Positions 15,715-64,000 of a stretch of DNA of 64,000 nucleotides are shown here, piece after piece. A program made the translations under genes and the position numbers. Source of the stretch: an uncultured virus (IMG/VR IMGVR_UViG_3300022934_002389) (lineage: Duplodnaviria > Heunggongvirae > Uroviricota > Caudoviricetes). Where the stretch lies: positions 1-64,000 of the IMG/VR virus record IMGVR_UViG_3300022934_002389; one strand, given 5' to 3'. How positions within the stretch are numbered: position 1 is the stretch's first letter; every line of letters starts with the position of its first letter. The notes beneath the pieces are model-generated. The model did no database searches and was not told the DNA's origin. It was given only the letters and a program-made list of their open reading frames with translations.

Positions 15715-16062
15715 ATGGACGATCGTCTTGAACAAGCAATAGATTCTGCCAATTTTTTAATTACATTAGAAAATACAAAACGCATATTGAAAGAGCAATA
15801 TAAAGAATCTTTGGTTTGCTATCATAACAAAGGACAATTTAGTATTAGCATGGAACTTATAAGTTATTTGCAAACACTAATAGGCATGAATCAAACAGAA
15901 ACTGTTCTAATTGACGATCACGATATTCCTATTCAAATCGAAAATTTAAAACTTTTTGTTTTAGAAGTAATGAATCAATTTTATAATGCAAACAACAAAT
16001 ATCTTATAGAGTATAACAAACTTGTTAAAAAGAGGTCAACAAAGGATATTGTAGAAGTATGA
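15715..16062 (+). CDS. Hypothetical protein
   Basis: 115 aa, good AGGAG site, ATGA overlap with the next gene. Confidence 0.7.
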   Translation: MDDRLEQAIDSANFLITLENTKRILKEQYKESLVCYHNKGQFSISMELISYLQTLIGMNQTETVLIDDHDIPIQIENLKLFVLEVMNQFYNANNKYLIEYNKLVKKRSTKDIVEV

Positions 16063-16910
16063 GCAAAGGTGTCCTCTTTATTGCAAGAAACAATAAAGAA
16101 ATTAACTATCTTTACCAAGCAGTGTTCAATGCACACAGAGTACACAAATATTTAGGTGTACCTGTTTCGATAATTACAGATAACAAAGAATATTTAGAAA
16201 CACGATTCGATAGTCATCCTTTTGAACATGTTATAGAAATTCCAAACGATCAAGATTATGGATATAGAAAATACAATGACGGAACGTATTCTAAAAGAAA
16301 TTTAGAATGGAAAAACACTTCACGGGCAAAAGCATACGACCTTTCTCCTTACGAAGAAACACTATTATTAGATACAGATTATATAATTGCAAATAGTTTG
16401 TTAAAAGATTGTTTTAACCAATTACATGATTTTTTAATTTATAAGGATAGTGTTGAACTTAGTGGATGGAGAGACGTATCAGAATTTGAATTATGTAGTG
16501 ACAAGACAATAGATTTTTATTGGGCAACTTGTGTATATTTTAGAAAAAGTCCTGACAACAAACGGTTCTTTGATCTGCTTCATCATATATCAGAGAATTG
16601 GGAACATTATAGAAACTTGTACCAAATTAAAAGTGCAATTTTTCGTAATGATTATGTTTTTAGTGTTGCAATACACATAATGAATGGACATTATAAAAAC
16701 GGGTTTGCAAAAACTTTACCTGGTAAATTGTTTTATACAATTGATAGAGATTTGCTTATTGACATTGATGGCGATGATTTTTTATTTTGTTTAGAGAAAA
16801 AAGATAGTTTTGGTAATTACATGCCATTGAGAATGAGAGGTTCTAATGTACATGTAATGAATAAATTTAGTTTAACGAGAGCAATGTATGTCCCAGAATT
16901 CAAAGATTAA
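16059..16910 (+). CDS. GT-A fold glycosyltransferase-like protein (GT8-like)
   Basis: N-terminal beta strand GVLFIA, VSIITD, SPYEETLLLDTDY (DxD), RNDYVFS, and C-terminal HVMNK. Confidence 0.65.
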   Translation: MSKGVLFIARNNKEINYLYQAVFNAHRVHKYLGVPVSIITDNKEYLETRFDSHPFEHVIEIPNDQDYGYRKYNDGTYSKRNLEWKNTSRAKAYDLSPYEETLLLDTDYIIANSLLKDCFNQLHDFLIYKDSVELSGWRDVSEFELCSDKTIDFYWATCVYFRKSPDNKRFFDLLHHISENWEHYRNLYQIKSAIFRNDYVFSVAIHIMNGHYKNGFAKTLPGKLFYTIDRDLLIDIDGDDFLFCLEKKDSFGNYMPLRMRGSNVHVMNKFSLTRAMYVPEFKD

Positions 16911-17742
16911 TTTTACATTGTTTGCACAAAATACAGATGTTGATTATGTTCAGCAAGCATGTCTTTGCGCAATGAGTATTAAAAATTCAAATCCGAACAG
17001 TTCTATTTGTTTGGTAACAAATGATGTTGTGCCTGATAAGTATCAAAATTTATTTGATTATATAAAAGAAATACCTTGGGGAGATGCTGCACAAGGACAA
17101 GAATGGAAGATTCATAATCGCTGGAAATTATACCATGTTACTCCGTATGATAATACAATTGTATTAGATGTTGATATGCTTGTGCTAGACGACATTAGCC
17201 GTTGGTGGGAATTTTTACAAACAAAGGAATTATTTTTTACATCAAATGTAAGAACATATAGAAATGATATTGTCACAAGTAGATTTTATAGGCCAGCATT
17301 TGATAAATTTTATTTGCCAGATACTTATGTGGGATTTTATTATTTTAAAAAATCTGATCTAGCACACACTTATTTTAAATGGCTCGAACTAGCAGTTAAT
17401 AATTGGGAAAAGTTTCAAGGAGATTTTGCAGGAGGCAAATACTATCAGCGTGTAGCAAGTATTGACATGCTGACTGCAATAATTATAAAAATTCTTGGAA
17501 TCGAAAACGAAGTCACCTGCAAAGTTAGAGATTATCCCCATTTTACACATATGAAGTTACATTGCCAAAATTGGACTAATGTTAAAGTAGACAGTTGGCA
17601 AAAGTATGTAGGCACATATCTTACAAATGACGGTAAATTAAAAATAGGCAACTATTTCCAACAAGGTGTCTTTCATTATACAGAAGATGACTTTGTAAAC
17701 GATAGAATTATAAACATATATGAAAAGCTTGTAGGAGTTTAA
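16888..17742 (+). CDS. GT-A fold glycosyltransferase-like protein (GT8-like), paralog of upstream gene
   Basis: YVQQACLCAMSIK, ICLVTND, TPYDNTIVLDVDML (DxD), FTHMK, FHY. Confidence 0.65.
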   Translation: MSQNSKINFTLFAQNTDVDYVQQACLCAMSIKNSNPNSSICLVTNDVVPDKYQNLFDYIKEIPWGDAAQGQEWKIHNRWKLYHVTPYDNTIVLDVDMLVLDDISRWWEFLQTKELFFTSNVRTYRNDIVTSRFYRPAFDKFYLPDTYVGFYYFKKSDLAHTYFKWLELAVNNWEKFQGDFAGGKYYQRVASIDMLTAIIIKILGIENEVTCKVRDYPHFTHMKLHCQNWTNVKVDSWQKYVGTYLTNDGKLKIGNYFQQGVFHYTEDDFVNDRIINIYEKLVGV

Positions 17743-18321
17743 ATGTTACAAATATCTACTAACAAATTTATTTACTTTGATGAAAATGGAGAACTTTTAT
17801 CTGTTAGCAATACTAACGCAGAAGAAGGGAACTGGATTGAAGTAGACATTGATGCAGTTAAAGATATTTTAGATGCAAAGGATTCTATGACAAATTATAG
17901 TGTTGCATTTGATAGCACTACAAAAAAATATGAACTAAAGCATAAACTTATAGCAGTAGACTTCAATACTGATATATGGTATGACATTTTTGAAATACCA
18001 ATTACAGAAAAAGCAGATGTAATTGTTACACAAGATTGTAAAAATAAAGAATGGTTATTTGAACTAGATCCTATGATAGTAAAAGAAACAAAATCTAAAG
18101 ACTCTTTTTATAACTTTCCTATGCAATTCTCGATCACAGAGTTTAATGATCCTCATAATTTATTGCAGTTTATTAAGTTTGGCTTTAGAGATTTGATAGA
18201 AGAAAATGTAGTAAAAGTTGCGTTTGATGATAATTTTAAGGTAGACAAAACTGACATAAGTGTGTATACTATTAAAAAATTCGATACCTATTGTCGGAGA
18301 ATGGTGAATGAGCAAATTTAA
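17743..18321 (+). CDS. Hypothetical protein
   Basis: 192 aa acidic ORF abutting both neighbours, no recognisable motif. Confidence 0.65.
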   Translation: MLQISTNKFIYFDENGELLSVSNTNAEEGNWIEVDIDAVKDILDAKDSMTNYSVAFDSTTKKYELKHKLIAVDFNTDIWYDIFEIPITEKADVIVTQDCKNKEWLFELDPMIVKETKSKDSFYNFPMQFSITEFNDPHNLLQFIKFGFRDLIEENVVKVAFDDNFKVDKTDISVYTIKKFDTYCRRMVNEQI

Positions 18322-19249
18322 AATACTAGACTATGACATTATCTATCTTAGTTATGACGAACCTAATGCTGAAAAAAACTATGCAGATTTGTGTAGGAAA
18401 ATTCCTTGGGCTAAACGTGTACACGGTGTAGACGGAAGTGATGCAGCACACAAGGCATGTGCAGAACTTTCAGAGACGGATAGATTTATTACTATCGATG
18501 GCGATAATATTATTGATTCTGAGTTTCTTACAAAAGAATATGATTTAGAAACACACGAAGACATGCACTGGAATCGTGATATAAAGTTTGAAGACTGTGT
18601 AGTAAGTTGGAGTGCTAGAAATACAATTAACGGACTAATGTACGGTAACGGCGGTATTAAATGCTGGCCTAAAGATAAAGTGTTAAACATGCGTACACAC
18701 GAAAATGCAGATCCTAATAATGCACATGCTCAAGTTGATTTTTGTTGGGACTTAGAATATATTCAAATGAATGCGTGTTATAGCGAAATTATGAATAATG
18801 CTACTCCGCAGCAAGCATGGCGTGCTGGATTTAGAGAAGGTGTCAAAATGGCACTTGACAGAGGTATGAAACCTACTTTGAATGATTTTAAACGTAATCA
18901 TTGGAAGAACTTGCATCGTTTGTATATTTGGCTAATGATAGGCGCTGATGTAGAAAATGGTAAATGGGCTATTTACGGCGCAAGAGAAGGTCTTTATAAA
19001 ACAATGTGTACGGATTGGGACTTTGTAAATGTTCGTGATTTTAAATGGTTAAATGAATATTGGGCAAATGAAGTTGAATCTAAAGTATCTTTAGAAGGAC
19101 TTGAAGATTCAATTGAGGAATATGGTATTAAACTAATTAACGAACTCGATTTACCTATTGCTGAAGAATGCTTAACTGCACAACAAAGTAATTTTTTCAA
19201 AACAGTATATCAAAATCCGGGTAGAACTGCTGGACAACAATTTATATGA
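18308..19249 (+). CDS. GT-A-like glycosyltransferase (phage type)
   Basis: YDIIYLSYDEPNAEKNY...RVHGV.G...AH...FITIDGDN (DxD)...YGNGGIK...AWRAGFREG. Homologous to the C-terminal domain of 34993-37557. Confidence 0.6.
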   Translation: MSKFKILDYDIIYLSYDEPNAEKNYADLCRKIPWAKRVHGVDGSDAAHKACAELSETDRFITIDGDNIIDSEFLTKEYDLETHEDMHWNRDIKFEDCVVSWSARNTINGLMYGNGGIKCWPKDKVLNMRTHENADPNNAHAQVDFCWDLEYIQMNACYSEIMNNATPQQAWRAGFREGVKMALDRGMKPTLNDFKRNHWKNLHRLYIWLMIGADVENGKWAIYGAREGLYKTMCTDWDFVNVRDFKWLNEYWANEVESKVSLEGLEDSIEEYGIKLINELDLPIAEECLTAQQSNFFKTVYQNPGRTAGQQFI

Positions 19250-20628
19250 AATCAGAAACAGATAGAATTAAAGAAGCCGCTAGTATAATGGAGGATGTAA
19301 GTCCGACATTCTGTTTGGCTAAGTGGCATCATACTACAATTTATTTACACACAGGTGATACACACAGTTGCTATCATCCGTCGCCGCATAAGATTGATTT
19401 AGAAGAAATTAAAAACAATCCTAGTGCATTGCACAATACACTTACAAAGAAAAAAGAACGTGCAAAAATGCTTGTAGGTGAAAAACCTAAAGGCTGTACC
19501 TATTGCTGGAATGTCGAAGCACTAGGAGATGATCATATTTCTGATAGAAACATTCGTAATGAAAGTATTTACAAGCCTGAGCGATTACAAGAAATTGTAG
19601 ATTCGCCTTGGGATTTTGACGTAAATCCAGAATATATCGAAATTGCATTTAGTAATGAATGCAATTTTAAATGTGGATATTGTTCACCTATGGCAAGTAG
19701 TAGCTTTTATAACGAAGTCAAAAAACATGGTCCGTATGATATGGTTAAAAATCATCGATGCGATGTTGATTGGTTTCAGCCTATGGAAGAAGGGTCAAAT
19801 CCTTACGTAGATGCATGGTGGAAATGGTGGCCTGAAGTAAGTAAGACACTAAACATTTTACGCATTACAGGCGGTGAGCCTCTTATGCATAAAAGCACAT
19901 GGCGTATATTTGACGAACTTAAAGAAAATCCACGTCCTCATATTGAACTTAACCTCAATAGTAACATGGGTTTAAGTCCACGCATTGTGTCTAAGTTTGC
20001 CGATAATGTAAAAGAACTTTTAGAAGGTAACAAAATTAAAAAGTTTAAAGTATATTCTAGTATAGATACATTTGATAATCGTGCAGAATATCTTCGCACA
20101 GGTTTAGATGTAAATCTTTGGGAAAGTAATATGAAAAACTTTTTAAATATTACTGGCTCCGATTTAACAATCATGTGTACGTTTAATATTCTTAGTGTTA
20201 CAAGTTTTAATTTATTCCTACAAAAAGTTTTAGATTGGCGTAAAGAATTTTATGATCCTAAGCGTAGACGTATTAGATTTGATACACCTTATCTAAAAGA
20301 ACCGTTACAATATGATATGCATATTTTACCTAAGGATGAATTTTTGCCTTACATGGATAAAATTTTACAATTTATTAATGACAATAGAGACGACAAAGAC
20401 ACTACGAAATTTAGTGATTTAGAATATGAACGTTTTCGTAGAGTAAGAAATTATTTTGCAAATGTTAACTATGACGAACCGAGAGTAAAAGAAGGCAGAG
20501 CAGATTTTTACAATTGGTTTAATGAATATGATGTTAGAAGAAACGTTAATTTTTTAGAAACATTTCCTGAGATGGAAGGGTTTTATAATTTATGTAAGCA
20601 AACTAAGGATGAACTAGAAGTTGTCTAA
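19246..20628 (+). CDS. Radical SAM protein with N-terminal Twitch/SPASM-like domain
   Basis: CNFKCGYC and RITGGEP. N-terminal FCLAKW..SCYH..GCTYCW, C-terminal D.RR..FLETFPEM. Confidence 0.9.
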   Translation: MKSETDRIKEAASIMEDVSPTFCLAKWHHTTIYLHTGDTHSCYHPSPHKIDLEEIKNNPSALHNTLTKKKERAKMLVGEKPKGCTYCWNVEALGDDHISDRNIRNESIYKPERLQEIVDSPWDFDVNPEYIEIAFSNECNFKCGYCSPMASSSFYNEVKKHGPYDMVKNHRCDVDWFQPMEEGSNPYVDAWWKWWPEVSKTLNILRITGGEPLMHKSTWRIFDELKENPRPHIELNLNSNMGLSPRIVSKFADNVKELLEGNKIKKFKVYSSIDTFDNRAEYLRTGLDVNLWESNMKNFLNITGSDLTIMCTFNILSVTSFNLFLQKVLDWRKEFYDPKRRRIRFDTPYLKEPLQYDMHILPKDEFLPYMDKILQFINDNRDDKDTTKFSDLEYERFRRVRNYFANVNYDEPRVKEGRADFYNWFNEYDVRRNVNFLETFPEMEGFYNLCKQTKDELEVV

Positions 20629-21463
20629 TTTGTTTTGTTACGGGTGCAGTTTTACAAATTACAGTTGGCCTATGTATCCTGAATACTTGGCACAGGAGTT
20701 TGATAAAACATTTAATTGTGGATTATCTGGTTTAGGTAATTTTGCAATATATCATAGATTACTAGGCACTGTTTTAGAAAACAAAATTAAAGAAAATGAT
20801 ACTGTAATTGTTCAGTGGTCAGAGCCATCAAGGCATGATTACCTTGACAAAGAAGAAGAATGGTCTAATATTGGCGGCGGCTTAGCCTTAGAACTAACTG
20901 CAAAAAGATTAGATCATATTATATCTCATAGTTCGTCTTACGTTAAAACTTTGACATATATGTTTCATACAGTTAACTTACTTGAATCTTTAAAAGTTAA
21001 CTGGACTTTTCTTTTTCTTACACCAGATGCAATGGCACACCTAAGTATTCAAAGAGGTAAACATATAGATTTAGCAGGACATCAAAAACGCATAGCACAA
21101 AATATGACGAACAAAGTTAACAAGTATCGTCATAAGTTTATCGAGTTACCATTAATGCATCACTTTAATCATAAAGATCCTGTGTTTATGACAAATCATG
21201 GTGGCAATTGGTGGGATGACCATCCTAGACCTAAATCAACATATAAATTTGTAAAGGAAGTTTTAGCACCAAAATTACAAATTAATACTAATAATATAAC
21301 TAGTTACAACAAATATGTTTGTAACAGAATATTTGTACCTGTAAAAGAAAGAACATACAATCAAGAATTTATGATTGAAGCAATGCGTGAGTTACCTGAC
21401 AATCTCAAGTATAGTTATGATATAAGTGAATTAATAAATGAAACAATTGATATGGGCATATAA
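20621..21463 (+). CDS. SGNH/GDSL-like hydrolase or acyltransferase
   Basis: TTG start. YGCSFT nucleophile block, GLSGLGN, VQWS and DDHP. Confidence 0.6.
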   Translation: MSNLFCYGCSFTNYSWPMYPEYLAQEFDKTFNCGLSGLGNFAIYHRLLGTVLENKIKENDTVIVQWSEPSRHDYLDKEEEWSNIGGGLALELTAKRLDHIISHSSSYVKTLTYMFHTVNLLESLKVNWTFLFLTPDAMAHLSIQRGKHIDLAGHQKRIAQNMTNKVNKYRHKFIELPLMHHFNHKDPVFMTNHGGNWWDDHPRPKSTYKFVKEVLAPKLQINTNNITSYNKYVCNRIFVPVKERTYNQEFMIEAMRELPDNLKYSYDISELINETIDMGI

Positions 21464-22745
21464 TTGGATTGGGCCACTAGGTCCTTTAAATAACCATAAG
21501 ATACCAGATGTATATGATCTGGCTAAGCGCATTGACGACATTGATGTTAAGTTTAGCGATGCAACAATGGAGCATGATCCTGCTGTTATGGAGATAGGAA
21601 ATTTTGTACCTTGCAAAATTATTCCATCTTCCGAGATAAAAGATATAGGGGATAGCAAATTTTTCTATGAAGTTATTTTAAGTCCTAACTTAAATTACAT
21701 GTCTATCACAATGGATATGTTTTGCGGATTTTTACAAAGAACGCCTATTCCTGGCGAGGTTTGGGATAAAATTTACAATGGTAACGGATATCTATTTGTA
21801 AACTGTAGATATGAAAGTTTTGTTACGCATAGAGATTTTCAAACATTACATGATTATTTTAATAGTCAAGGTGTGCCCTTGAACAAAGTTATCTATGCAA
21901 CAAACTGTGCAAATATACAAACTATTTACGACAAGTACTGTTTACAAGCAGGTGTAGGCGAAGATAAATTAAATGTCGAATATATGGGTTTGTATATACA
22001 AATTACAAAAGACATTTTACGTGATGAAGTTTATGAAAGTCGTGTTGACTTGGGCAAACAAGATAGATTGTTTTTAAATTTTAACAGACGTAGTCATGAA
22101 CATCGTATGTTGCTGTTATTGCAAATGATTAAAAATGATATGCTAGATGACTGTCATATGAGTTTTGACAGACATGGAGGTGTTAATAGACCATTTGAAC
22201 ATTTTATATACGATTTTGAGAGAACTTCTTCAAAATATAATTTAGAATTTGAAAGAGAAGATTTTGAAAATTTATGGGACGATTTGCCTTTTGTGCTAGA
22301 CAGTAAACATTTTGACAGATTTCCTGTAGAAGAACACTTAATGGATACTGCTGAATGGTATGATCGAACATATATTCATCTTGCAAGCGAAACAAATTTT
22401 GAAAATAATGTAATTCATTTGACAGAAAAAACAATGAAGCCAATTATATTCAAACAACCATTTATTATTGTTGGCCCTGCGTTTACACTTCAGTATCTTA
22501 AAAAATTAGGATTTAAAACTTTTGATGCTTGGTGGGACGAAAGTTATGATGAAACACTAAATGGGAAAGATAGAATGCAAGCAATTATAAAAGTATGTAA
22601 AGATATCAAGTCTTGGCCTAAACAAAAATTAAAACAGTTATATACACAAACACATGAGATACGAGAATACAATATTCAACATTTTAAAAATTTAAAACCT
22701 GTAGAACTATTAGATCTTGTTGAAAAATATGGAGCAGACATATGA
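21438..22745 (+). CDS. Putative GT-B glycosyltransferase (GT10/fucosyltransferase-like TEK motif)
   Basis: FLNFNRR..HR...ASETNF....LTEKTMKPIIFKQPFIIVG..L..LGFKTF..WDESYD. Confidence 0.5.
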   Translation: MKQLIWAYNWIGPLGPLNNHKIPDVYDLAKRIDDIDVKFSDATMEHDPAVMEIGNFVPCKIIPSSEIKDIGDSKFFYEVILSPNLNYMSITMDMFCGFLQRTPIPGEVWDKIYNGNGYLFVNCRYESFVTHRDFQTLHDYFNSQGVPLNKVIYATNCANIQTIYDKYCLQAGVGEDKLNVEYMGLYIQITKDILRDEVYESRVDLGKQDRLFLNFNRRSHEHRMLLLLQMIKNDMLDDCHMSFDRHGGVNRPFEHFIYDFERTSSKYNLEFEREDFENLWDDLPFVLDSKHFDRFPVEEHLMDTAEWYDRTYIHLASETNFENNVIHLTEKTMKPIIFKQPFIIVGPAFTLQYLKKLGFKTFDAWWDESYDETLNGKDRMQAIIKVCKDIKSWPKQKLKQLYTQTHEIREYNIQHFKNLKPVELLDLVEKYGADI

Positions 22746-23710
22746 GTAAGGTATTAGTATGCGGAGCCGGAGGATTCATTGGAGTTCATTTGGTAAGAAG
22801 TTTAAAAGCACAAGGACATTATGTAATTGGTGCAGATTTAGAGTATCCTGAATTTAGCGAAACCGAATGTGATGAATTTCATATTGTAGATTTGCGAGAA
22901 CAAGCAGATGTACGTAAATTAATTACAGAAGACATTTATGAAATATATCAACTTGCTGCGGATATGGGAGGAGCAGGATATATTTTTACAGGCGATAATG
23001 ATGCTGATATTATGCACAACTCTGCTATGATTAATCTTAACATTTTGAAAGAAATGGTTGTTAAAGGTGTAAAACGTATTTTTTATAGTTCAAGTGCTTG
23101 CATGTATCCTGAACACAATCAGATGGATCCTGATAATCCTTTGTGTAGCGAAGAAAGTGCGTATCCAGCAAATCCTGATTCTGAATATGGTTGGGAAAAA
23201 TTATTCAGCGAACGCTTGTGTATGTCTTTTGAAAAGAATTATGGTATACGTGCAAGAATGTGTCGTTTTCATAATGTGTTTGGACCAGAAAGCACATGGA
23301 CTGGAGGTAAAGAAAAATCTCCCGCAGCCTTATGTAGAAAAGTTGCAATGAGCGAAGACGAAACTGTAGAAATTTGGGGACCTGGCACACAAACAAGAAG
23401 TTTTCTTTATATCGATGAAGCTATTGAAGGCATTCATAGGATTATGGAAAGCGATTATAATCAGCCGTTAAATCTTGGCAGTGAACGTATGATTGCTATA
23501 AATGATTTAGCACACCTAATTGCGAGTGTTAACACTAACAAAAAACTGAGAATTAATAATGTGCCAGGACCTGTTGGTGTTAATGGCAGAAACAGTCATA
23601 ATAAACTTATTAAGGAAACCATTGGTTGGGCACCGCAAGACAATTTAGAATATGGCTTGCAACAAACTTATCAATGGATACTACAACAAATTGAGAAACA
23701 AGAAAATTGA
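22742..23710 (+). CDS. NAD-dependent epimerase, GDP-mannose 3,5-epimerase-like
   Basis: GAGGFIG, LAADMGGAGYI, SSSACMYP, YGWEK (YxxxK), RFHNVFGP..TW.GGKEKSPAALCRK and GRNS, the characteristic motifs of the GME subfamily. Confidence 0.85.
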   Translation: MSKVLVCGAGGFIGVHLVRSLKAQGHYVIGADLEYPEFSETECDEFHIVDLREQADVRKLITEDIYEIYQLAADMGGAGYIFTGDNDADIMHNSAMINLNILKEMVVKGVKRIFYSSSACMYPEHNQMDPDNPLCSEESAYPANPDSEYGWEKLFSERLCMSFEKNYGIRARMCRFHNVFGPESTWTGGKEKSPAALCRKVAMSEDETVEIWGPGTQTRSFLYIDEAIEGIHRIMESDYNQPLNLGSERMIAINDLAHLIASVNTNKKLRINNVPGPVGVNGRNSHNKLIKETIGWAPQDNLEYGLQQTYQWILQQIEKQEN

Positions 23711-30164: not shown

Positions 30165-30167
30165 ATA
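30160..30167 (+). promoter_or_regulatory. Late promoter-like box (GTTAAATA)
   Basis: Same 8-mer as 15680, overlapping the stop codon and 4 nt before ATG 30172. Confidence 0.35.
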
Positions 30168-30171
30168 TTGC

Positions 30172-33450: not shown

Positions 33451-33451
33451 T
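33424..33451 (+). promoter_or_regulatory. Sigma70-type promoter (TTGACA-N16-TATAAT)
   Basis: Perfect -35 and -10 hexamers upstream of AAGGA and ATG 33470. Confidence 0.75.
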
Positions 33452-47266: not shown

Positions 47267-47269
47267 TAT
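47241..47269 (+). promoter_or_regulatory. Sigma70-type promoter (TTGACA-N17-TAGTAT, extended -10 TG)
   Basis: Perfect -35, 17 nt spacer and TGn before the -10. GGAG and TTG start at 47293 follow. Confidence 0.65.
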
Positions 47270-47292
47270 AGTACTAATAATGGAGAACTATA

Positions 47293-51222: not shown

Positions 51223-51661
51223 TTTTGACAGTTTTCAAAAAGAGTTTTTAGATTGGGTAGAAGAAAAAATAGAAAAGATTCGACCTGAAAATGGTTTTCC
51301 TATTTGTCCTTTTGCACGACGGGCTCGATTAGACAACAAAATACAATTAATAGACGGTAGAGAAAACTACCAACATGACATATACCAATTTGACAGACGC
51401 AACTATGATATAGGTGTTGTTTGGCTAGGACCTAATGCAAATCTTTTAGAAGCAGAAAAATTTGTAAACAGATTAAAGGGTAGAGAATTACTTTATTTTT
51501 TAAGTACACCTACTTCTGGGTATTTTGCTAAAAATCCATGTAATTGTATTTTTATACAAGACAAAGGAGATATTCAAGTTAAGCGTAAATATCTTGCGTC
51601 AACAGAATATTACAGAGATTGGCCAGAACAATACTTCTTTGAGATAATGAATAATGTCTGA
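51179..51661 (+). CDS. Hypothetical protein (DUF1415-like CPFA motif)
   Basis: DWVEE.I.....FPICPFARRA...IFIQ. Homologous to the N-terminus of 60994. Start uncertain. Confidence 0.55.
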   Translation: MQLTYNFTKVITKTDFDSFQKEFLDWVEEKIEKIRPENGFPICPFARRARLDNKIQLIDGRENYQHDIYQFDRRNYDIGVVWLGPNANLLEAEKFVNRLKGRELLYFLSTPTSGYFAKNPCNCIFIQDKGDIQVKRKYLASTEYYRDWPEQYFFEIMNNV

Positions 51662-56877: not shown

Positions 56878-57457
56878 AGTAGGAGATAAAATACCTAACA
56901 TAAAGACTATGCACAAAGTTGGTACAACAACACGGTGGATTGATACTTATGAATTATTTGAAAACAAGAAAATATTGCTGTTAGGTTTACCTGGATTGTT
57001 TTTAGTCGAATACGCTGCAAGTCAAGCAAGAACTTATGATTTTTATTATGATAGATTTAAAGAACTAGGTTTAGACGAAATTTGGTTTACAAGTATAGAT
57101 GACACATATGTACAACGTGCATGGATTAAAAACGATGGTTTGCAAAATATACAAGCGTTGCCAGATCCTACAGGCAAATGGGCAGAAACCATAGGAATGG
57201 CAGAAGATATGAGCAGAGAAGGTTTAGGAGAAAAGCGTAGTCATAGATATGCGATGGTAATAGATAATTTGATTATGAAACATATGAAGTACGAAGATTT
57301 TACACACAACCCTATGACCTGTTTTCAAGTAACAGATGCAGATACAATGATAAAGTATTTTGAAATTATACAAACAAATTATGAAAGGTGGAACGATGAC
57401 GCAAGAGACAAAGTCGATGTTCTCGGAAGAGACAAAGTCAACACCGTACTGTCGTGA
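56870..57457 (+). CDS. Peroxiredoxin (Prx5/redoxin)-like protein lacking the peroxidatic Cys
   Basis: IRVGDKIP, LFENKKILLLGLPG, DEIWFTSIDD.YV..AW, LPD..G....IG and G.RS.RYAMVID. The PGAFTPTC motif is replaced by PGLFLVEY. Confidence 0.75.
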   Translation: MIRVGDKIPNIKTMHKVGTTTRWIDTYELFENKKILLLGLPGLFLVEYAASQARTYDFYYDRFKELGLDEIWFTSIDDTYVQRAWIKNDGLQNIQALPDPTGKWAETIGMAEDMSREGLGEKRSHRYAMVIDNLIMKHMKYEDFTHNPMTCFQVTDADTMIKYFEIIQTNYERWNDDARDKVDVLGRDKVNTVLS

Positions 57458-58037
57458 ACTTCCGACACTTTGGTACGATAGGGAATATTTGCTAGATCAT
57501 TTAGAAAATATTGATAATGAAGATTGGTATCAATTTGATTGCGGCCATATTAGATGGACAGTGCATGAAGCGTTTAATCCAAGATTAGAATGTAAAAACT
57601 ATAAATGGAGCGAGTTTCATTATGAACTTGCAATGTTGTTTAAGCCTGCTATTACACCTGACACAATGTTATACACAAGCACACCTATAGGAGGCACACC
57701 ACCGCATCAAGACAGAAACAGACCTGCTGTGCTTAACTTTGCTGTGCGTGGAAAGTTTGAAGATGTAAGTCCGCAAACATTTTATGAAGATTTTGATAGA
57801 AGTACTAAAAAATATGTAATGCCTTATAGTGTTAGCGAAAAAACTAATGAATTTGCTCCATGGATGTTCAAAGGTCCAGAAATACACGGAGTAGATAATG
57901 ATGCTGATGAAGATAGAGTGATTATTACAAGTTGCTGGCGTCATAATAGTTATGCCGAAATAGAACAAGGAATATTAGACGGTAGCATCATTGACTGGGA
58001 TCAAAATGAAAAGAATAAAAGGATAAAATTTTTATGA
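57396..58037 (+). CDS. 2OG-Fe(II)/cupin-like oxygenase
   Basis: PPHQD (HxD), VLNF and IHGVDN..DRV. Start is ATG 57396 or 57417. Confidence 0.6.
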   Translation: MTQETKSMFSEETKSTPYCRELPTLWYDREYLLDHLENIDNEDWYQFDCGHIRWTVHEAFNPRLECKNYKWSEFHYELAMLFKPAITPDTMLYTSTPIGGTPPHQDRNRPAVLNFAVRGKFEDVSPQTFYEDFDRSTKKYVMPYSVSEKTNEFAPWMFKGPEIHGVDNDADEDRVIITSCWRHNSYAEIEQGILDGSIIDWDQNEKNKRIKFL

Positions 58038-58573
58038 ATTGGTATCACAGAAAACTTAAATTACAATACGATCCTAAGATTTTTAATGATATAGTAGAGT
58101 ATGCTAAATCAAAAGATTGGAAACAAGGCTATGATCAAAACGGACTACAGTGGAACGTAGAAGAACTTCCGCTTGACGTTAAAGACTTTCCTATACTTGA
58201 AGAAATTTACGAAGGGTTTAACGCAGAATTTAAACGTCCGAGTTTCTTCCTAAGCAGTGTAAAGCCAGGCGGCCTAGTAAATCATATAGATCATCGCAAG
58301 TGGGGAAATTTTGGCATACCTCTTGTAGGAGACTTTAGCAAGACTCCTCAGTATTACTATGATCAATTTAATCATCCTGTAGAAAAATTTGTAATGGATG
58401 CACCTACAATATTTTATACAAGGATGTTACATGCAGTGCCACGCAAACTTGATGATACGGAACCACGTTGGATTCTAATGATGGATTTGTTTGATTGGAT
58501 TGATAATTTGTTTAACAAAATAGATGACAACACAATATGGAAAAATACAGAACATTTTAAATATAATGGATAA
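58034..58573 (+). CDS. 2OG-Fe(II)/cupin-like oxygenase
   Basis: PGGLVNHID (HxD), IPL and MLHAV...PRW. Confidence 0.6.
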   Translation: MNWYHRKLKLQYDPKIFNDIVEYAKSKDWKQGYDQNGLQWNVEELPLDVKDFPILEEIYEGFNAEFKRPSFFLSSVKPGGLVNHIDHRKWGNFGIPLVGDFSKTPQYYYDQFNHPVEKFVMDAPTIFYTRMLHAVPRKLDDTEPRWILMMDLFDWIDNLFNKIDDNTIWKNTEHFKYNG

Positions 58574-60230
58574 TCTATATTTTATACAAATCCCACTAAC
58601 AAGAAGTATGGCGTGTTTACCTCAAGCAGTAGGCACTATCTGGGGATATTGTGAACAGTTTAAAGAAGTTACTGATAGATATCAATTAGCAGGTGTTTTG
58701 TGGAAAGATAATATCGATATACAAAATCCTAAAGTTGTTGCTGCAAGTTGTTATATGTGGAATTGGAAGGAAACATATGATATTATAAAAAAAATTAAAA
58801 AAGAATATCCTGATTGTATAATAGTAGTGGGCGGCCCAGATCCAAAATACACAAGTGAATGGTGTAAAGATCATCCAGAAATAGATGCAGTAATTGCGTA
58901 CTATGGCGAAGAAACAATGCGTAAAATTCTTGTTAGTGATACTTTAGACTTGCCTGGTGTAGTAACAAAAGAGTTTAACAATGCATTAGAAGCAGAATAT
59001 GCTGATCCAAAAGATATACCAAGTCCTTATCTTAACGGGTTTTTTGATACATTGTTAAAAGGAAATAAACAAAAAATAAGAGTAGTTTTTGAAGGAAATC
59101 GAGGTTGTCCATATAGTTGTAGTTTTTGCGACATAGGGCATAAAAAGTACCAAAAAATACAAATGTTCGATACTGAAAGATGCTTGGCAGAATTAGAATG
59201 GATATGTAATAATAATGTTAGAGTAATTGATGTAGCAGATAGTAATTTTGGTATATTTCCAAGAGATGAACAATTAGTAGATTATATTGTAGAGCAAAAA
59301 GAGAAAGGTAATTTTGACGGTACTTTTATGCCTACGTGGGCGAAAACACATGGAGAAAAAATTATTAAACTTGCTAAAAAATTACAACAAAGTGGTGTTG
59401 ACGAGGTATTTGGATTTAGTTTACAAAGCACAAATCCAAAAACACTAAAAAATGTTAAAAGAAAAAATACATACGATATAAAGGGCTTTGCTCCAATTAT
59501 TAAAGATTTGTCTGATGCAAACTTAAGCTCTTATACAGAACTAATTTTTCCTATGCCAGGAGATACTATAGATAATTTTAAAAGCGGGCTACACGAGATA
59601 TTAGATATGCCTGCCCCTTTTCAGATGCTACAAGTGAATAGTTTAAGTAGGTTAAGTAATACAGAGTTCAATACAGGATTTAAAAAACTTACCTGGGCAA
59701 ACATAAAAGGCACAGCAAAACCATATGATAATGATGTTGTAGATGAAATATGCGTAGCAACAGATACACTTACAAAAGGAGAGGTGTTTGAAGGACTGTT
59801 TTACAGTAGGTCTTTTGTAATTCCTATGTATTGGTATGGACTAGCAACATACATGCTTGATGAGAATTATAAAATGCATAGCACTAGGAGTAAACTTATT
59901 AAAAACATTTATACTAAACTTTTTGAGATAAGTAAATTTCAAAAACTTAAACAAGAAATGAAAGATCATTATTTTAAAAGTATTGAAAAATACGATCATA
60001 TAGGCTACCGTATTATTAATAGAGAACTATCAGACTATTATACTGATACAGCTTATAGCCATTTGTATTACATTAAAAATAATATATTTGATGTGTTAGT
60101 AGATATATATCCTCAATATAGTGATATTATCAATAAAAATAAAAAAGATATGAAAAGCATAGATAATTTAGAAGATTGGCTACAAGACATACATGTTAGA
60201 AGGAGATTTACAACAGCATGGAAAAGTTGA
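58566..60230 (+). CDS. Cobalamin-binding (class B-like) radical SAM protein
   Basis: LPQAVG..SCYMWN..VGGP..YGE, IPSPYL, EGNRGCPYSCSFCD, DSNFG and ELIFPMPG. Start reassigned to ATG 58566. Confidence 0.88.
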   Translation: MDNLYFIQIPLTRSMACLPQAVGTIWGYCEQFKEVTDRYQLAGVLWKDNIDIQNPKVVAASCYMWNWKETYDIIKKIKKEYPDCIIVVGGPDPKYTSEWCKDHPEIDAVIAYYGEETMRKILVSDTLDLPGVVTKEFNNALEAEYADPKDIPSPYLNGFFDTLLKGNKQKIRVVFEGNRGCPYSCSFCDIGHKKYQKIQMFDTERCLAELEWICNNNVRVIDVADSNFGIFPRDEQLVDYIVEQKEKGNFDGTFMPTWAKTHGEKIIKLAKKLQQSGVDEVFGFSLQSTNPKTLKNVKRKNTYDIKGFAPIIKDLSDANLSSYTELIFPMPGDTIDNFKSGLHEILDMPAPFQMLQVNSLSRLSNTEFNTGFKKLTWANIKGTAKPYDNDVVDEICVATDTLTKGEVFEGLFYSRSFVIPMYWYGLATYMLDENYKMHSTRSKLIKNIYTKLFEISKFQKLKQEMKDHYFKSIEKYDHIGYRIINRELSDYYTDTAYSHLYYIKNNIFDVLVDIYPQYSDIINKNKKDMKSIDNLEDWLQDIHVRRRFTTAWKS

Positions 60231-60976
60231 CCCTTAACAAAAAAATGTTTATTGATTTAGACGAAATTATACAAGTTGAAAAGTGTCCAGATATAACAGA
60301 TATGATTGTGGATAGTGTGAATCATATCAGACACAACTGTAATATTAGAACTTTTGATCTCAAAGGAAATCAAATTAAAGATGCTTGGTATGCAAAACAG
60401 ATATTAGACTGTGACCTTAAAGATAATAAAAAAATATTACAAGCAGAACTAAAACATGGTGTTAGAAGTCCTTACTATGTATTAGCATTAAGAGAAGGTG
60501 GTCATGATAGTTATGTCTACGATTCGATAAACACAGATGATAATGTGTGGAAGAAGATAAAGTGGAAAGAAGATTTAAAAGACACTTTTGCCCCTCTAAT
60601 AGAATATATAGAATCTTTACCTTTAGATAGAATAGGTCATTGTAGTTTTTTTATAAACAGACCAGACATTATTCCTTGGTATCATGTCGATAGTGGCACA
60701 GACGACGAACTAGAAACGTGGAAACCGAAACCACACAGAGAAGAGTTTATATGGATAAACTTTAGCTCGGACAAAACATTTTACGTCTTAGACGAAAAGG
60801 TACCTGTTCCAATAACATCTAGAAGTGCTTTTTTTAACACAAACAACTATCATGGATCGCACGAAAGCACACCGAGGTATTCTTTCAGTTTACGTATTGA
60901 ATGCGTTTTTTCGGAAAAATTAAGACAACAAATGGGAATTGCTCATTTAGAAAGGTACTATTACGAAAATGTATAA
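60218..60976 (+). CDS. 2OG-Fe(II)/cupin-like oxygenase
   Basis: PWYHVD (HxD), EFIWI and FFNTNNYHGS...SLRIE. Confidence 0.55.
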   Translation: MEKLTLNKKMFIDLDEIIQVEKCPDITDMIVDSVNHIRHNCNIRTFDLKGNQIKDAWYAKQILDCDLKDNKKILQAELKHGVRSPYYVLALREGGHDSYVYDSINTDDNVWKKIKWKEDLKDTFAPLIEYIESLPLDRIGHCSFFINRPDIIPWYHVDSGTDDELETWKPKPHREEFIWINFSSDKTFYVLDEKVPVPITSRSAFFNTNNYHGSHESTPRYSFSLRIECVFSEKLRQQMGIAHLERYYYENV

Positions 60977-60993
60977 CAATAACGAGATATTTT

Positions 60994-61992
60994 ATGTCGA
61001 CTAAATTATTTGATTCTTTTGTGCATGATTTTTTAGAATGGAGCAAAACAAGTGTTGAACCAAAAAATGCTTGTCCATTTGCAAAAACTTCACGTGTCAA
61101 AAATCAAATACAATTTTTAGATGGCAGTTCTAATTTTGATGTTATTAAAGATTGGGATTCTTCTAAAGAAATGGGTGTGGTGTATCTTGGACAAGATGTA
61201 GACAAAGAAATAATAATGGAAAAAATATATAAAGCAAGGGCTAACGATCCTAGTAAAGTTTTTTTCTACACTGCACCTATTAAAGGAGTAAAAGATAATA
61301 ATCCCTTTCAGTGTATAATAATTCATAATAAAAAAGAATTTATGTTGAAACAGCGTATTTTATACGAAAAAGGAGACTATTATAAAAATTATCCAGGAGA
61401 AAAATTAGACAAATTTATAAGTGTCTATCCAATAACAAAAACAACAAAGCAAAAAATTGGAACTGCAAAGCAAGGTAAAGTATTCCAACATTATTTTAAA
61501 GGACAAGGTAGTGTTTTAGATATTGGAGGCGCAGCAGGTAATTTATTATACTATGTACCTATAGCACAATACACATGTATAGATGTAAATGAAAAAGCAA
61601 TCAAGTTAGGTAAAGAAATTTATCCTGAGCATAATTTTATACATTGGAATAGGTACAACAGATACTATAATAAAACAGGATATGCTCTTTTGGAGTTTCC
61701 AAAAGTCAGTCCACATGATTTTACATTTGTTAACAGTGTTTTTACCAGTTGTGATCACGACACTATAATGCACATAATGTCAAATATTCTTAAAATAACA
61801 AATAAAAAAGTTGTTTTTAGTGTATTTGATTATAACAACAAAGAATTAAAAAACAAGTTAGGAAATGCTGTAAATTATCATGACGTATTTAAATTAAAAA
61901 ATGTTTTAGAATTTGAATTTAAAATAGATTGTAAAGTTTATAATCCTTGTAGTATAGATAATAATTTTGCAGTGTTTAGTATAGAAAGGTAA
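60994..61992 (+). CDS. Fusion of CPFA-motif (DUF1415-like) domain and class I SAM methyltransferase
   Basis: N-terminal ACPFAK. C-terminal VLDIGGAAGN, YTCIDVN and DFTFVNSVFT. Start reassigned to ATG 60994. Confidence 0.7.
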   Translation: MSTKLFDSFVHDFLEWSKTSVEPKNACPFAKTSRVKNQIQFLDGSSNFDVIKDWDSSKEMGVVYLGQDVDKEIIMEKIYKARANDPSKVFFYTAPIKGVKDNNPFQCIIIHNKKEFMLKQRILYEKGDYYKNYPGEKLDKFISVYPITKTTKQKIGTAKQGKVFQHYFKGQGSVLDIGGAAGNLLYYVPIAQYTCIDVNEKAIKLGKEIYPEHNFIHWNRYNRYYNKTGYALLEFPKVSPHDFTFVNSVFTSCDHDTIMHIMSNILKITNKKVVFSVFDYNNKELKNKLGNAVNYHDVFKLKNVLEFEFKIDCKVYNPCSIDNNFAVFSIER

Positions 61993-61994
61993 AC

Positions 61995-62912
61995 ATGTAT
62001 AACAATCCTCTTAATAAATTAATTTGGGATAAAGTGCAAGAAATGTTTTATTGGAACATTGCACCAGAATCTCCAATATGCCAATTGCCGTTTACACAAG
62101 AATTTATTGACGCATGTGAACAAGAATTTTCAATGACTGTTCGTGATATGCATTATCCTATTTCCTTAGGAAAAGTTGATCAATGGTTTGGTAAACGTAT
62201 GCAAGATTTTGTAAAAGAAATTGACGCACAATATCAGCACAATTATTTTGTCGGAGAAAATGGAACTAGCACAACTGGTGTAGTAGGAACTATATATGAT
62301 GTTGACGAAAAACCTATTACAAACAAATGGAATATTAGAGGACAAGCACTTGTAGACAGATTACAGGCTATGCAAAAAGAAAATCCTAATTTAACAATTT
62401 TAGATATGGGTTGCGGAGTTAACGAATACAAAAAACATTTGAATAATGTTACTGGAGTTGATCCGTATAGAGAAGAAGCAGATATTTTGTCCAAGCAAAG
62501 TGATTTTATTACGCAAGGTAAAACTTGGGATATAATCATTTGCTTTGGCCCACAGAATTGGTATACTTACGATGAACAATTTAGAAACTTCAAAAAACTC
62601 AAAGAATGTTTGGCACCGGGCGGGTTACTTTTGTGGTCGCACGTACATCACTATTATAAAGTATTTCAGCCCGATCATCTTTATGCGCACACTTGGATAC
62701 ACGGAGACATGGATCATGCTCAACGTAATAGTGCTTTTTATTTTTATGATCGCGATTGGAAATATACTTGGTATTTCAATTGGACCGAACATGCCGTAGA
62801 AACACTTGCTAAACATGTAGGACTGTCTATTGATAAAGTAGATTATGATCATTGTAATTTATATAGACCGCCTATGTATAGAATATTTGTGGAGATGACA
62901 CATGAAAAATAG
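61995..62912 (+). CDS. Class I SAM-dependent methyltransferase with N-terminal extra domain
   Basis: ILDMGCG, TGVDP, WDIIIC and LAPGGLL. Confidence 0.8.
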   Translation: MYNNPLNKLIWDKVQEMFYWNIAPESPICQLPFTQEFIDACEQEFSMTVRDMHYPISLGKVDQWFGKRMQDFVKEIDAQYQHNYFVGENGTSTTGVVGTIYDVDEKPITNKWNIRGQALVDRLQAMQKENPNLTILDMGCGVNEYKKHLNNVTGVDPYREEADILSKQSDFITQGKTWDIIICFGPQNWYTYDEQFRNFKKLKECLAPGGLLLWSHVHHYYKVFQPDHLYAHTWIHGDMDHAQRNSAFYFYDRDWKYTWYFNWTEHAVETLAKHVGLSIDKVDYDHCNLYRPPMYRIFVEMTHEK

Positions 62913-63471
62913 ATGGGACGTAACAGTAGCAGCGTCTAATTATCATTGGGATCCTAACGCAAACGATAGCAATACTATTAGAATAATAAGTAATGTGTTT
63001 GATGAATGGAATGATGAAATCGAACGTGCTATAGAATTACAAAAACCTGTTATTAGTGACGGAACAATCGAAAAGCACATATCTGCCGGAACGCACATGT
63101 ATAACGGAGTTATAGTTGATACTACAGAATTTCCAATACTCGGTAGTATCGGTAAAAAACTAGGATTTGAAGAATATAATACAAGTATTCAAACACAAAC
63201 TACTGGAATGACAACTCCATTGCATATAGATTCATCTTCTGGAGATAAAGAAAGAGTTATTGTTATGCTTCAAGACTGGTACTGGGGACAAATACTTCAA
63301 TTTGGTAATATAGTATTACATAATTGGAAAGCAGGGGATGTATTATATTTTAGTATCAATGGTACACCGCATAGTACAGCAAATTTAAGTCCACATAGTA
63401 GAACTATAGCAAAAATTACAGGACGCACAACAGATGCATTTGAAAAATTATTAAAGGGAGAGTCTCAGTGA
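62902..63471 (+). CDS. 2OG-Fe(II)/cupin-like oxygenase
   Basis: QTTGMTTPLHID (HxD), RVIVMLQDW.WGQ..QFGN and WKAGD...PHSTAN...R. Confidence 0.65.
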   Translation: MKNRWDVTVAASNYHWDPNANDSNTIRIISNVFDEWNDEIERAIELQKPVISDGTIEKHISAGTHMYNGVIVDTTEFPILGSIGKKLGFEEYNTSIQTQTTGMTTPLHIDSSSGDKERVIVMLQDWYWGQILQFGNIVLHNWKAGDVLYFSINGTPHSTANLSPHSRTIAKITGRTTDAFEKLLKGESQ

Positions 63472-63495
63472 AAAATAGATGGGACGTAACAGTAG
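62903..63495 (+). repeat. 27 bp perfect direct repeat at the starts of two paralogous genes (62903-62929 and 63469-63495)
   Basis: TGAAAAATAGATGGGACGTAACAGTAG occurs in both places. Confidence 0.9.
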
Positions 63496-64000
63496 AACAA
63501 AGTAATTATGATTTTAATCCGTTTAGAGAAAGTGATCATGGCAAAAGCTTTAGAACAGTAGGAAATATAGAACCTACATGGAAAGATGAAATACCTATTG
63601 CAAATGCTAATCAATACGACTTTTATTGGCCTTCGCCTGTGTCTCCAGAAGGCGACAGTTTTAATTATGACTATGAAGAATTGCTTTGCAAGGATTGGGG
63701 TATACCTTTAGACTTTGTTGTATACAGACAGTGGACAACAACGGATGAAACACCAATACTAAACAGTCTAGCCGAACAAATCGGTTTAGAAAATGCACAA
63801 ACAAATATTCAAACTCAACATACAGGAATGATGCTACATTTACATATAGATAGTTTAACTGGTTTACGAAAAGAACGTACAGATCAAACAAGTAGTAGAG
63901 CAACAGACGATGAATGGGGTAGATGCTTTGTAATGCTTGATGATTGGGCACCTGGACATATTATTCAATTTGGTAATACCTACGTACCACCTTGGCATGC
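63468..64000 (+). CDS. Paralog of 62902 oxygenase, 3'-truncated by window
   Basis: Not in the ORF track because no stop codon falls in the window. GGGAG plus GTG start. MKNRWDVTVEQSNY...QTQHTGMMLHLHID...RCFVMLDDWAPGHIIQFGN. Confidence 0.75.
   Translation, partial: MKNRWDVTVEQSNYDFNPFRESDHGKSFRTVGNIEPTWKDEIPIANANQYDFYWPSPVSPEGDSFNYDYEELLCKDWGIPLDFVVYRQWTTTDETPILNSLAEQIGLENAQTNIQTQHTGMMLHLHIDSLTGLRKERTDQTSSRATDDEWGRCFVMLDDWAPGHIIQFGNTYVPPWH

Follow-up and report, generated by a model that had tools for sequence, protein, structure and literature searches.

The first 64,000 nucleotides of an uncultured phage record in IMG/VR (IMGVR_UViG_3300022934_002389; 135,461 bp, CheckV completeness 38%), referred to here as the window, carry a long island of enzyme genes behind the tail fibre genes. 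On balance, this island is probably a fibre-adjacent variable region that codes for the cytoplasmic building of a glycan and its tailoring by radical S-adenosylmethionine (radical SAM) enzymes. The original prediction described a dedicated 48-kb pathway. Fold-confirmed GT8-like and GT-B glycosyltransferases, nucleoside diphosphate (NDP)-sugar enzymes and a radical SAM family also found in a bacterial O-antigen locus make the content fit glycan making and tailoring. It is not a single pathway, however, but a conserved core with cassettes that are absent or replaced in relatives. Genes are named g plus their start coordinate in the window. Island proteins were searched against Pfam, NCBIfam and PHROG, and the island was compared gene by gene with G001, G004 and G005, three of the related IMG/VR phage records G001-G005.

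The radical SAM proteins were counted by motif scan. Positions 15715-64000 contain exactly the 15 CxxxCxxC proteins that had been predicted (starts 19246, 24923, 33470, 38659, 41440, 42765, 43664, 45066, 46058, 48332, 51654, 52714, 53874, 55024 and 58524). All of them match Pfam Radical_SAM (PF04055) at E <= 3.7e-5, 12 above the 29.5-bit gathering cut-off. Two more, past the window end at 64018 and 65958, bring the island to 17, and additional radical SAM genes occur on the minus strand of the same contig. The curated 170-bit cut-off of NCBIfam NF033640 (N_Twi_rSAM, twitch domain-containing radical SAM protein) is passed by eight of the 15 with 227-416 bits: g19246 (316), g33470 (302), g41440 (234), g43664 (416), g46058 (253), g48332 (227), g51654 (229) and g52714 (404). 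With three further members on the contig outside the window, the family has 11 paralogs in one phage. The radical SAM cysteines C123/C127/C130 are invariant among these; of four N-terminal cysteines, C8, C76 and C79 are invariant too, and C26 is present in at least 90%. Pairwise identities of 19-35% (34% for g19246 and g33470) identify the paralogs as old duplicates. The family, represented here by 11 deeply diverged copies, is catalogued in NCBIfam; the literature searched, which did not extend to supplements, held no published chemistry for NF033640 and no paper treating the island's radical SAM family. Positions 9-79 of the family profile align with the twitch domain of BtrN (E 1.4e-6), the twitch radical SAM dehydrogenase of butirosin (PDB 4M7T/4M7S). 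The substrate of BtrN is a sugar-like aminocyclitol. This likeness is one of the auxiliary-cluster domain and is confined to the twitch domain and the radical SAM core; the twitch domain is C-terminal in BtrN, whereas it is N-terminal in NF033640 proteins. The best PDB sequence matches of the profile are RiPP enzymes (for peptides made on the ribosome and modified after translation), namely 8vpo, SkfB and CteB-like proteins.

Three other radical SAM proteins (g24923, g55024 and g58524) belong to class B, with a B12-binding domain (PF02310, E 1.9e-8 to 3e-12) N-terminal to PF04055. Against the KedN5-family model NF033712 they score 255, 192 and 177 bits over about 390 of 624 positions, where the cut-off is 700 bits; by sequence they are relatives of the KedN5 family, not members. 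Four radical SAM proteins are shorter and have a cysteine-rich C-terminal region. One of these four is split: g42765/g43375 (42765-43689 (+)) encode a radical SAM domain of 221 amino acids (aa) and a SPASM-type domain of 104 aa in overlapping frames. G003 has a similarly short open reading frame (ORF), which means that the split occurs beyond this one assembly. Partial NF033640 matches below the cut-off are given by g38659, g45066 and g53874. Among PDB sequences g38659 matches NifB alone (E 0.001), and g53874 has no match at E <= 0.01.

About seven glycosyltransferase-like genes had been predicted, and seven are supported, the GT8-like and GT-B proteins by fold and the GT2-like proteins by leads only. 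The AlphaFold2 model of g16888, from a 26-sequence alignment, has a predicted local distance difference test (pLDDT) score of 88.8; its top Foldseek match is glycogenin (E 2e-9), followed by LARGE1, UGGT and LgtC. In the GT8-like DxD motif D96 is invariant, and D94 is present in at least 90% of the 26 sequences. The paralogous g16059 and g16888 have no match to Pfam Glyco_transf_8 at E <= 1, and their profile reaches glycogenin among PDB sequences only at E 0.075. The g16888 model identifies the pair as GT8-like enzymes of the GT-A fold, a kinship at fold level only. For the g23707 model (42 sequences, pLDDT 91.2) there are 53 Foldseek matches at E <= 1e-3. VIA Z scores reach 10.5-12.7 over residues 1-402, and 50 of the 50 listed top entries are GT-B enzymes. 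A glycosyltransferase of chlorovirus NY2A also matches (Z 12.6). Both g21438 and g26827 are paralogs of g23707, and assignment of this family to GT10 (Atlas 0.80-0.81) is a lead.

The GT2-like assignment of g18308 and of the g34993 C-terminus is likewise a lead. Their family comprises 1588 representative clusters, and g18308 has at least 8000 metagenomic homologs, from sources that include Tara and GOS. The nearest Atlas clusters of g18308 are auto-named GT2-like at 0.98, without a common Pfam family. Among 27 scanned representatives the g18308-type domain is fused to a GT-B domain in six, and one matches PF00535 (E 5.8e-4, below cut-off). Alignment of g18308 with three GT2 proteins gave an hhalign E of 0.17, from shallow alignments that have no power, and the g18308 and g37544 profiles returned nothing meaningful among PDB sequences. 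The larger g34993 (34993-37557 (+)) consists of five to six degenerate repeats of about 110 residues, which resemble the g18308-type N-terminal half, followed by one intact copy; representatives of its family hold up to 12 matched stretches in 1735 residues.

The two NDP-sugar enzymes that had been called are confirmed as an Epimerase (SDR) protein, g22742 (E 1.4e-42), and a UDPG_MGDP_dh protein, g28989. The redoxin g56870 is also firmly supported by its library match. The remaining enzyme calls were upheld in part. One of the two proposed pyridoxal phosphate enzymes is g30818 (DegT, E 2.4e-18, though only 240 aa), but g49515 finds support in no library. Among some eight proposed oxygenases, g30136 matches 2OG-FeII_Oxy_3 (E 9e-13), whereas the other seven or so carry an HxD...H motif only. 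Pairs with this motif gave hhalign E values of 0.25-0.69 against g30136 and against each other, from alignments likewise too shallow to have power. The g40445 protein matches olivetolic acid cyclase (E 0.001, residues 59-121) and a 'putative hydroxylase' (E 0.087) among PDB sequences and has three homologs in 5.8 billion proteins; g50449 matches no PDB sequence. Three methyltransferases had been named: g61995 stands (E 4.8e-7), g60901 is weak (E 0.0035) and g37544 shows the motif only. For the three SGNH proteins, g39723 proves to be a DUF6071 protein (E 8e-9), and g20621 and g32527 were called on motif alone. The two amidinotransferases are tentative; g31518 and g47293 are paralogs within phrog_25854, a family with no assigned function, and a match to ADI (E 9.6e-5) lies below the cut-off. 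The island proteins are predicted to be soluble throughout, except for the TctA transporter near the end.

Comparison with the related records separates a conserved core from cassettes. The core consists of two GT8-like proteins, two GT2-like proteins, a methyltransferase-like protein, a 75-aa protein, three radical SAM enzymes and a PP-loop ATPase. Kept in G001, G004 and G005 are g15715, g16059, g16888, g17743, part of g34993 and a PP-loop ATPase like g65246. Identities to the same three records are 61-73% for g18308, 47-54% for g37544, 66-73% for g38659, 86-88% for g43664 and 79-83% for g53874. To these the cassettes add further radical SAM enzymes (N_Twi and B12), GT-B proteins, the dehydrogenase and the epimerase for NDP-sugars, an aminotransferase, and proteins resembling esterases and oxygenases. 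All four versions of the island start behind the fibre genes and end at a strand switch, with lengths of about 21 kb in G005, 27 kb in G004, 36 kb in G001 and 54 kb here. The core is contiguous in G004 and G005; here an insert of about 15.7 kb (19246-34993) separates g18308 from g34993, and the insert genes are mostly missing from those two records. The three genes g18308, g34993 and g37544 are tied together by G005, where one ORF of 1058 residues (L104:684-3857 (-)) comprises homologs of all three.

A wider sample was drawn around g43664, which has 267 relatives in IMG/VR. Of these, 80 (82-100% identical) were kept, and 45 of their loci have full 10-kb flanks. In 43 of the 45 full loci a g38659 ortholog is found no more than 10 kb from g43664; a g53874 ortholog is found in 32. 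Most cassette genes have orthologs of at least 50% identity solely in four near-identical loci of the 45. Identity to G001 is 84.3% for the capsid protein, 87.8% for g43664, 83.0% for g53874 and 38-43% for the fibre proteins. The 75-aa ORF, which has a TTG start, lies at 38439-38666 (+) between g37544 and g38659. It is present in 69 of the 80 loci and stands directly before g38659 in 68, with a usual overlap of 8 nt with the g38659 start. Its product is 64-97% identical over the aligned loci, along the whole length. A complex prediction of g38659 with the 75-aa protein scored 0.00 and gives no answer.

The island is tightly packed on one strand, as had been noted. ORFs on the + strand are unbroken from 3 to 70,105, with genes on the minus strand thereafter, and gaps within the island are at most 65 nt, a maximum that counts the 75-aa ORF even though it falls below the 80-aa cut-off of the ORF list. 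From 15715, the window holds 46 ORFs of at least 80 aa and the 75-aa ORF. The island does run off the window: eight further ORFs, two radical SAM genes among them, extend it to 70,105 and to about 54 kb in all. Its features and those of the neighbouring virion module are as follows.

3..15675 (+), upstream virion module: giant structural protein, g7397, three fibre-like proteins, g13498/g14404.
3-7385 (+), giant structural protein, open at its 5' end, more than 2460 residues (phrog_10938, E 1e-73).
Starts 8019, 10090 and 12007 (+), fibre-like proteins with common N-termini (tail collar PF07484, E 5e-20, in g8019).
14404-15675 (+), g14404, last fibre-region protein (ubiquitin-E1 FCCH beta-barrel domain, E 7.6e-8).
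15715..19249 (+), conserved core part 1: g15715, g16059, g16888, g17743 and g18308, with orthologs in three of three relatives at 30-73% identity; g15715 (115 aa) and g17743 have no assigned function.
19246..34993 (+), variable insert, bracketed by the paralogous N_Twi radical SAM enzymes g19246 and g33470.
Within the insert (+), cargo recognized by Pfam/NCBIfam, paralogy and GT-B fold: g21438/g23707/g26827, g22742, g24923, g28989, g30136 and g30818; also SGNH-motif g20621 and g32527 and the tentative amidinotransferase g31518.
34993..39726 (+), conserved core part 2: g34993, g37544, the 75-aa ORF at 38439-38666 and radical SAM g38659 (C-terminus rich in Cys).
39723..43689 (+), cassette: DUF6071 protein g39723, HxD..H-motif protein g40445, N_Twi g41440, split radical SAM g42765 with SPASM g43375.
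43664..45088 (+), g43664, the most conserved N_Twi radical SAM (NF033640, 416 bits).
45066..53877 (+), cassette: g45066, N_Twi g46058/g48332/g51654/g52714, g47293, g49515, g50449 and g51179.
53874..55052 (+), g53874, conserved radical SAM (PF04055, E 6.6e-16), its C-terminal half without assignment.
55024..64000 (+), cassette: B12-radical SAM enzymes g55024/g58524, redoxin g56870, HxD..H-motif proteins g57360/g58034, g60218, g62902/g63468, methyltransferases g60901/g61995.
Past the window to 70,105 (+), by profile matches: N_Twi g64018, PP-loop ATPase g65246, radical SAM g65958 and TctA g66884, besides three other ORFs.

The virion module is syntenic in G001, G004, G005 and Ralstonia phage RsoM2USA, and g13498 and g14404 have a C-terminal domain of 170 residues in common. 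Near the island end, contig positions 66884-68949 (+) encode a membrane protein of the TctA tricarboxylate transporter (E 2e-57) and a second protein whose N-terminus resembles a signal peptide, unusual cargo in a phage.

Cellular relatives provide the context for the radical SAM family. Three of 401 sampled Pseudomonadota genomes exceed the NF033640 cut-off, one of them a metagenome-assembled genome (MAG) that probably holds a phage contig. A scan of genome contigs with a single NF033640 protein returned 10 loci, all in MAGs, including at least one large many-copy contig that is probably a binned phage. In a bacterial contig bounded by dnaE and accA (G111:C19), four NF033640 genes in tandem stand between a group of RmlC, RmlD and Wzm genes and a group of TylF, methyltransferase and WbsX genes. 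One member (L115:8582-11143 (-), 854 residues) is a fusion of a Wzt O-antigen export ATPase, Wzt_C domain included, with an entire N_Twi radical SAM. These NF033640 genes sit inside an ABC-transporter-dependent O-antigen locus (Wzm/Wzt), whereas the phage is without Wzm, Wzt, WecA or WbaP-type genes. An Elusimicrobiota MAG combines NF033640 with two B12-radical SAM enzymes, three GT2 proteins, a GDSL protein and a radical SAM-SPASM protein. The mix in this MAG is that of the phage island, and such glycan-type loci are the main basis for placing the island radical SAM enzymes on sugars.

A small version of the core is present in a cultured phage. RsoM2USA (343,806 bp) has a syntenic module that follows the genes for its giant structural protein, tail sheath and fibres. 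It encodes homologs of g15715, g16059 (33%), g16888 (36%) and g18308 (47%), one N_Twi radical SAM (35% to g19246/g33470), a second g18308-like protein (43% to the g34993 C-terminus) and a g37544-like protein (30%), all annotated as hypothetical. Its neighbours ORF361, ORF359 and ORF356 are virion proteins confirmed by mass spectrometry, according to the available text on this phage (PMC8504454). A cultured phage with the core mini-version makes the function of the island testable.

The proposed mechanism would proceed as follows. (i) NDP-sugars would be made and modified, and then moved stepwise onto a soluble acceptor. (ii) Radical SAM enzymes would carry out oxygen-independent C-H chemistry on the sugars, with C-methylation as the part of the B12 class. 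(iii) The twitch class would catalyse oxidation, epimerization, dehydration or C-C bond formation on sugars. (iv) SGNH-like, methyl- and amidino-type enzymes would put on or take off substituents. (v) Turnover of cassettes would lead to particles of differing 'glycotypes'. Families for the initiation and export of glycans were sought in the five related phage records, including the complete one of 381,886 bp: Bac_transf (PF02397), Glycos_transf_4 (PF00953) and ABC2_membrane (PF01061) are found in none, Wzx and Wzy not being part of the search. Since the island proteins are soluble and no initiation or export genes were found, the glycan would either be assembled on a soluble acceptor or be added to intermediates of the host. 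The acceptor is quite possibly the phage's own fibre or virion proteins, which take the largest share among the candidate targets. They are favoured because the island keeps its place next to the fibre genes, the core is conserved at capsid level and the cassettes turn over, all of which are indirect indications. A bolder proposal is possible but doubtful: the N_Twi family would perform several undescribed radical chemistries on sugars, swappable cassettes would give the fibres or particle a heavily edited glycan coat and hence viral 'serotypes', and the two radical SAM enzymes conserved at capsid level would make an obligatory unusual precursor.

Several observations weigh against glycan building and radical tailoring as the role of the island. 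Product and acceptor are candidates drawn from sequence. None of the seven glycosyltransferase-like proteins matches a Pfam glycosyltransferase model even at E <= 1, and the oxygenase, SGNH and amidinotransferase calls are mostly at motif level. The cellular context of NF033640 amounts to very few loci, and the substrates of the radical SAM enzymes are assigned from neighbourhood alone. For the SPASM-type g38659, g45066 and g65958 the best NCBIfam matches are protein or peptide maturases, and the 75-aa ORF ahead of g38659 fits peptide chemistry equally. Capsid-level conservation of two radical SAM enzymes sits oddly with a fast-evolving glycan; g43664 and g53874 may serve another purpose. Transcript data bear on both sides. 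In favour of the glycan reading, four salt-marsh metatranscriptome libraries contain contigs at least 99% identical to the phage, and these cover 26-30 of the 30 bins of 10001-30000. On the other side, contigs of two runs stop at 15,627 and 15,668, and beyond 15.63-15.67 kb the word depth is 0-6.7, down from 10-14, a difference between fibre genes and island that is not a valid measure of expression. Run X3 leaves parts of 16.7-18.0 kb and 26.7-28.0 kb without cover. Carry-over of DNA into the RNA libraries is possible, and these contigs are no evidence that the island is expressed with the fibre genes.

The same data bear on the description of the island as fused to the virion operon. Adjacency and common strand are as described, but the gap of 39 nt before g15715 holds the motif TAAATAC, as do the gaps before g7397 and g12007, and the RNA-library contigs stop there. 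Motif and contig ends together suggest that the island may be a separate transcription unit. TAAATAC also precedes many minus-strand non-structural genes and thus says nothing on timing. The T4 late promoter TATAAATA has one site in the window (13466-13473, directly before g13498) against 13.2 +/- 3.6 expected, and four on the whole contig; this single window site makes it unusable as a sign of late island expression.

Other functions have to be weighed against the glycan pathway. Remodelling of the host surface is unlikely, though it accounts for part of the evidence. The enzymes would act on undecaprenyl-linked O-antigen or capsule intermediates of the host at the cytoplasmic face and alter the cell surface while the long infection lasts, for example to block superinfection. 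The sole clear cellular context of NF033640 is the O-antigen ABC-transporter locus with its one Wzt fusion, and the missing initiation and export genes are expected if the host supplies both. In the available text of PMC7029224, modification of the host O-chain is proposed for fibre-adjacent GT8 and UDP-glucose dehydrogenase genes. Yet the island encodes no membrane-anchored enzyme, and its core equals the capsid protein in conservation among phages with fibres about 60% different, while host O-antigens vary. A constant place in the late structural region would also be unusual for host-takeover genes. It is rather improbable that the island has no single function and is a hypervariable dump of unrelated auxiliary genes, its radical SAM enzymes serving cofactors or low-oxygen host metabolism. 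The restriction of most genes to the four near-identical loci, the TctA transporter and signal-peptide protein at the island end, and the metabolic role proposed for radical SAM enzymes of phage CP220 (PMC2853527, as far as its accessible text goes) agree with such a dump. It does not account for the return of the same enzyme classes in every island version, the fusion of three core genes, the drawing of cassettes from few paralogous families or the joint occurrence of the same family mix in a cellular glycan-type locus.

The enzymes might instead modify proteins or peptides, as in RiPPs or on virion proteins, in which case the sugar genes next to them would have a function of their own. We regard this as improbable. 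SPASM and twitch radical SAM enzymes are typical peptide maturases, the best PDB matches of the family profile are of this kind, and the B12-radical SAM enzymes resemble RiPP C-methyltransferases at low score. The 75-aa ORF immediately preceding g38659, often overlapping it, could also be read in this way; its product is conserved over the whole length, however, unlike a leader-core peptide. Pfam and NCBIfam searches detected no RiPP recognition element, PqqD-type domain or leader-type small peptide family, and the cellular relatives lie in glycan loci rather than RiPP loci. Hypermodification of DNA, in which a tailored glycan or other group on phage bases would allow escape from restriction, is the least probable of the alternatives. 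The GT-B model also resembles the T4 alpha- and beta-glucosyltransferases (Z 11-12), and PP-loop/QueC-like ATPases recur in the island. Pyle et al. (2024, as cited in PMC12619734) reportedly describe a variety of glycans that viral glycosyltransferases make on DNA. Each genome, however, has a single thymidylate-synthase-type gene (ThyX in G002 and G003, ThyA-family in G001 and G004) and no extra hydroxymethylase candidate was found, which makes DNA modification less likely. Pfam and NCBIfam searches of the island returned no TET/JBP or DpdA-type family, the minus strand outside the island is where FolE and the QueE-like gene are found, and the island adjoins structural and not replication genes.

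If the glycan pathway is confirmed, an abundant aquatic group of giant phages would spend about a seventh of its genome on it. The key enzymes would come from a catalogued but unstudied radical SAM family and would offer new sugar chemistry. Glycotypes of the particle or of the host surface would form a new layer of phage-host recognition, and the long-noted radical SAM richness of some T4-like phages would be explained.

The contig is of phage origin, as had been assumed. G002 (256,558 bp, IMG/VR) includes it whole at 100% identity from G002 base 120,728 and carries a major capsid gene of the T4 Gp23 type (E 8e-103). The remainder of the contig codes for a family-B DNA polymerase, clamp loader, PhoH, ThyX, ClpB, DnaJ, peptide deformylase and GroES. 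Its closest polymerases are those of Phosso (50% identity), Atu_ph07 (46%), Vibrio phage 2.275.O (44%) and the GAP32/RaK2 group (about 41%). The related record that is 381,886 bp long has a completeness rating of 100%. The lineage is that of a T4-superfamily jumbo phage, RaK2/Atu_ph07-like and roughly 350-380 kb in size. The Moraphages (PMC12619734), considered as the same lineage, turned out to be a different one as far as the text available goes. Among 50,697 phage records, megablast with window positions 1-12000 and tblastn with g53874 gave zero matches, and tblastn with g43664 matched only Vibrio phages K566/K567 and RsoM2USA at 21-23% identity.

Further genes lie outside the island. A proteostasis set comprises ClpB, peptide deformylase, a DnaJ homolog and a GroES-like protein (L003:11598-15160 (-), L004:9139-9543 (-)), and a Bax inhibitor-1 family membrane protein is phage-encoded (L004:8095-8775 (-); PF01027, E 3e-51). 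At contig 84269-88272 (-) an N_Twi radical SAM lies beside a QueE-like radical SAM (E 1e-11, below cut-off) and FolE (E 2e-41); with the phosphoribosyltransferase past this pair, they may form a 7-deazaguanine-type module. A-type Fe-S carrier genes, present in two of the five related phage records, have been linked with radical-SAM-rich marine phages by Nishimura et al., in the text available (PMC5332604). The contig also encodes PMM, a cytidylyltransferase, a second epimerase and, at 124700-125041 (-), a ferredoxin.

Glycosylation of virions by viral enzymes is familiar from other systems. Chloroviruses and mimiviruses have glycan gene clusters, and capsid and tail-tube glycans of mycobacteriophages are reportedly due to virus-encoded glycosylation (Freeman et al., 2023). 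The likeness to the island lies in soluble viral glycosyltransferases beside structural genes; to our knowledge, no radical SAM enzymes have been reported from any of the three. The supposition that the radical SAM density is without precedent does not hold. There are 11 radical SAM genes in Campylobacter phage CP220 and 12 in CPt10, a richness termed 'highly unusual' by Timms et al. in 2010, and a marine T4-like genome with 12 was described in 2017 (PMC5332604, in its available part). In CP220/CPt10 five of the genes form an interchangeable module with a glycine amidinotransferase nearby. The accessible text proposes a role in host metabolism and makes no link to glycosyltransferases or fibres (PMC2853527). 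The CP220/CPt10 enzymes showed no sequence kinship with g43664 by tblastn over the 50,697 phage records. The closest arrangement is the host recognition cluster of pelagimyophages and cyanomyophages (Zaragoza-Solas et al. 2020; PMC7029224), a hypervariable region beside the tail fibres with a mean length of 44.6 kb in pelagimyophages. Its glycosyltransferases are most often GT8, and it also holds UDP-glucose 6-dehydrogenase and cassettes of radical SAM genes that change from one close relative to the next; the portion available reads the cluster as one for host O-chain modification and does not analyse its radical SAM family. The likeness extends to position, variability and a cargo of glycosyltransferases and radical SAM enzymes; the published boundary genes of the cluster are VrlC and gp14. 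Pelagimyophages are described there as ordinary-sized T4-like phages, whereas the island lies in a jumbo phage of about 350-380 kb and has 17 radical SAM enzymes and a core conserved at capsid level. Radical-SAM-rich T4-related phages and fibre-adjacent glycosyltransferase islands with radical SAM cassettes are thus already in print. What sets this case apart is a jumbo RaK2-like lineage with 17 radical SAM enzymes led by one uncharacterized family, a defined core and a cultured mini-version.

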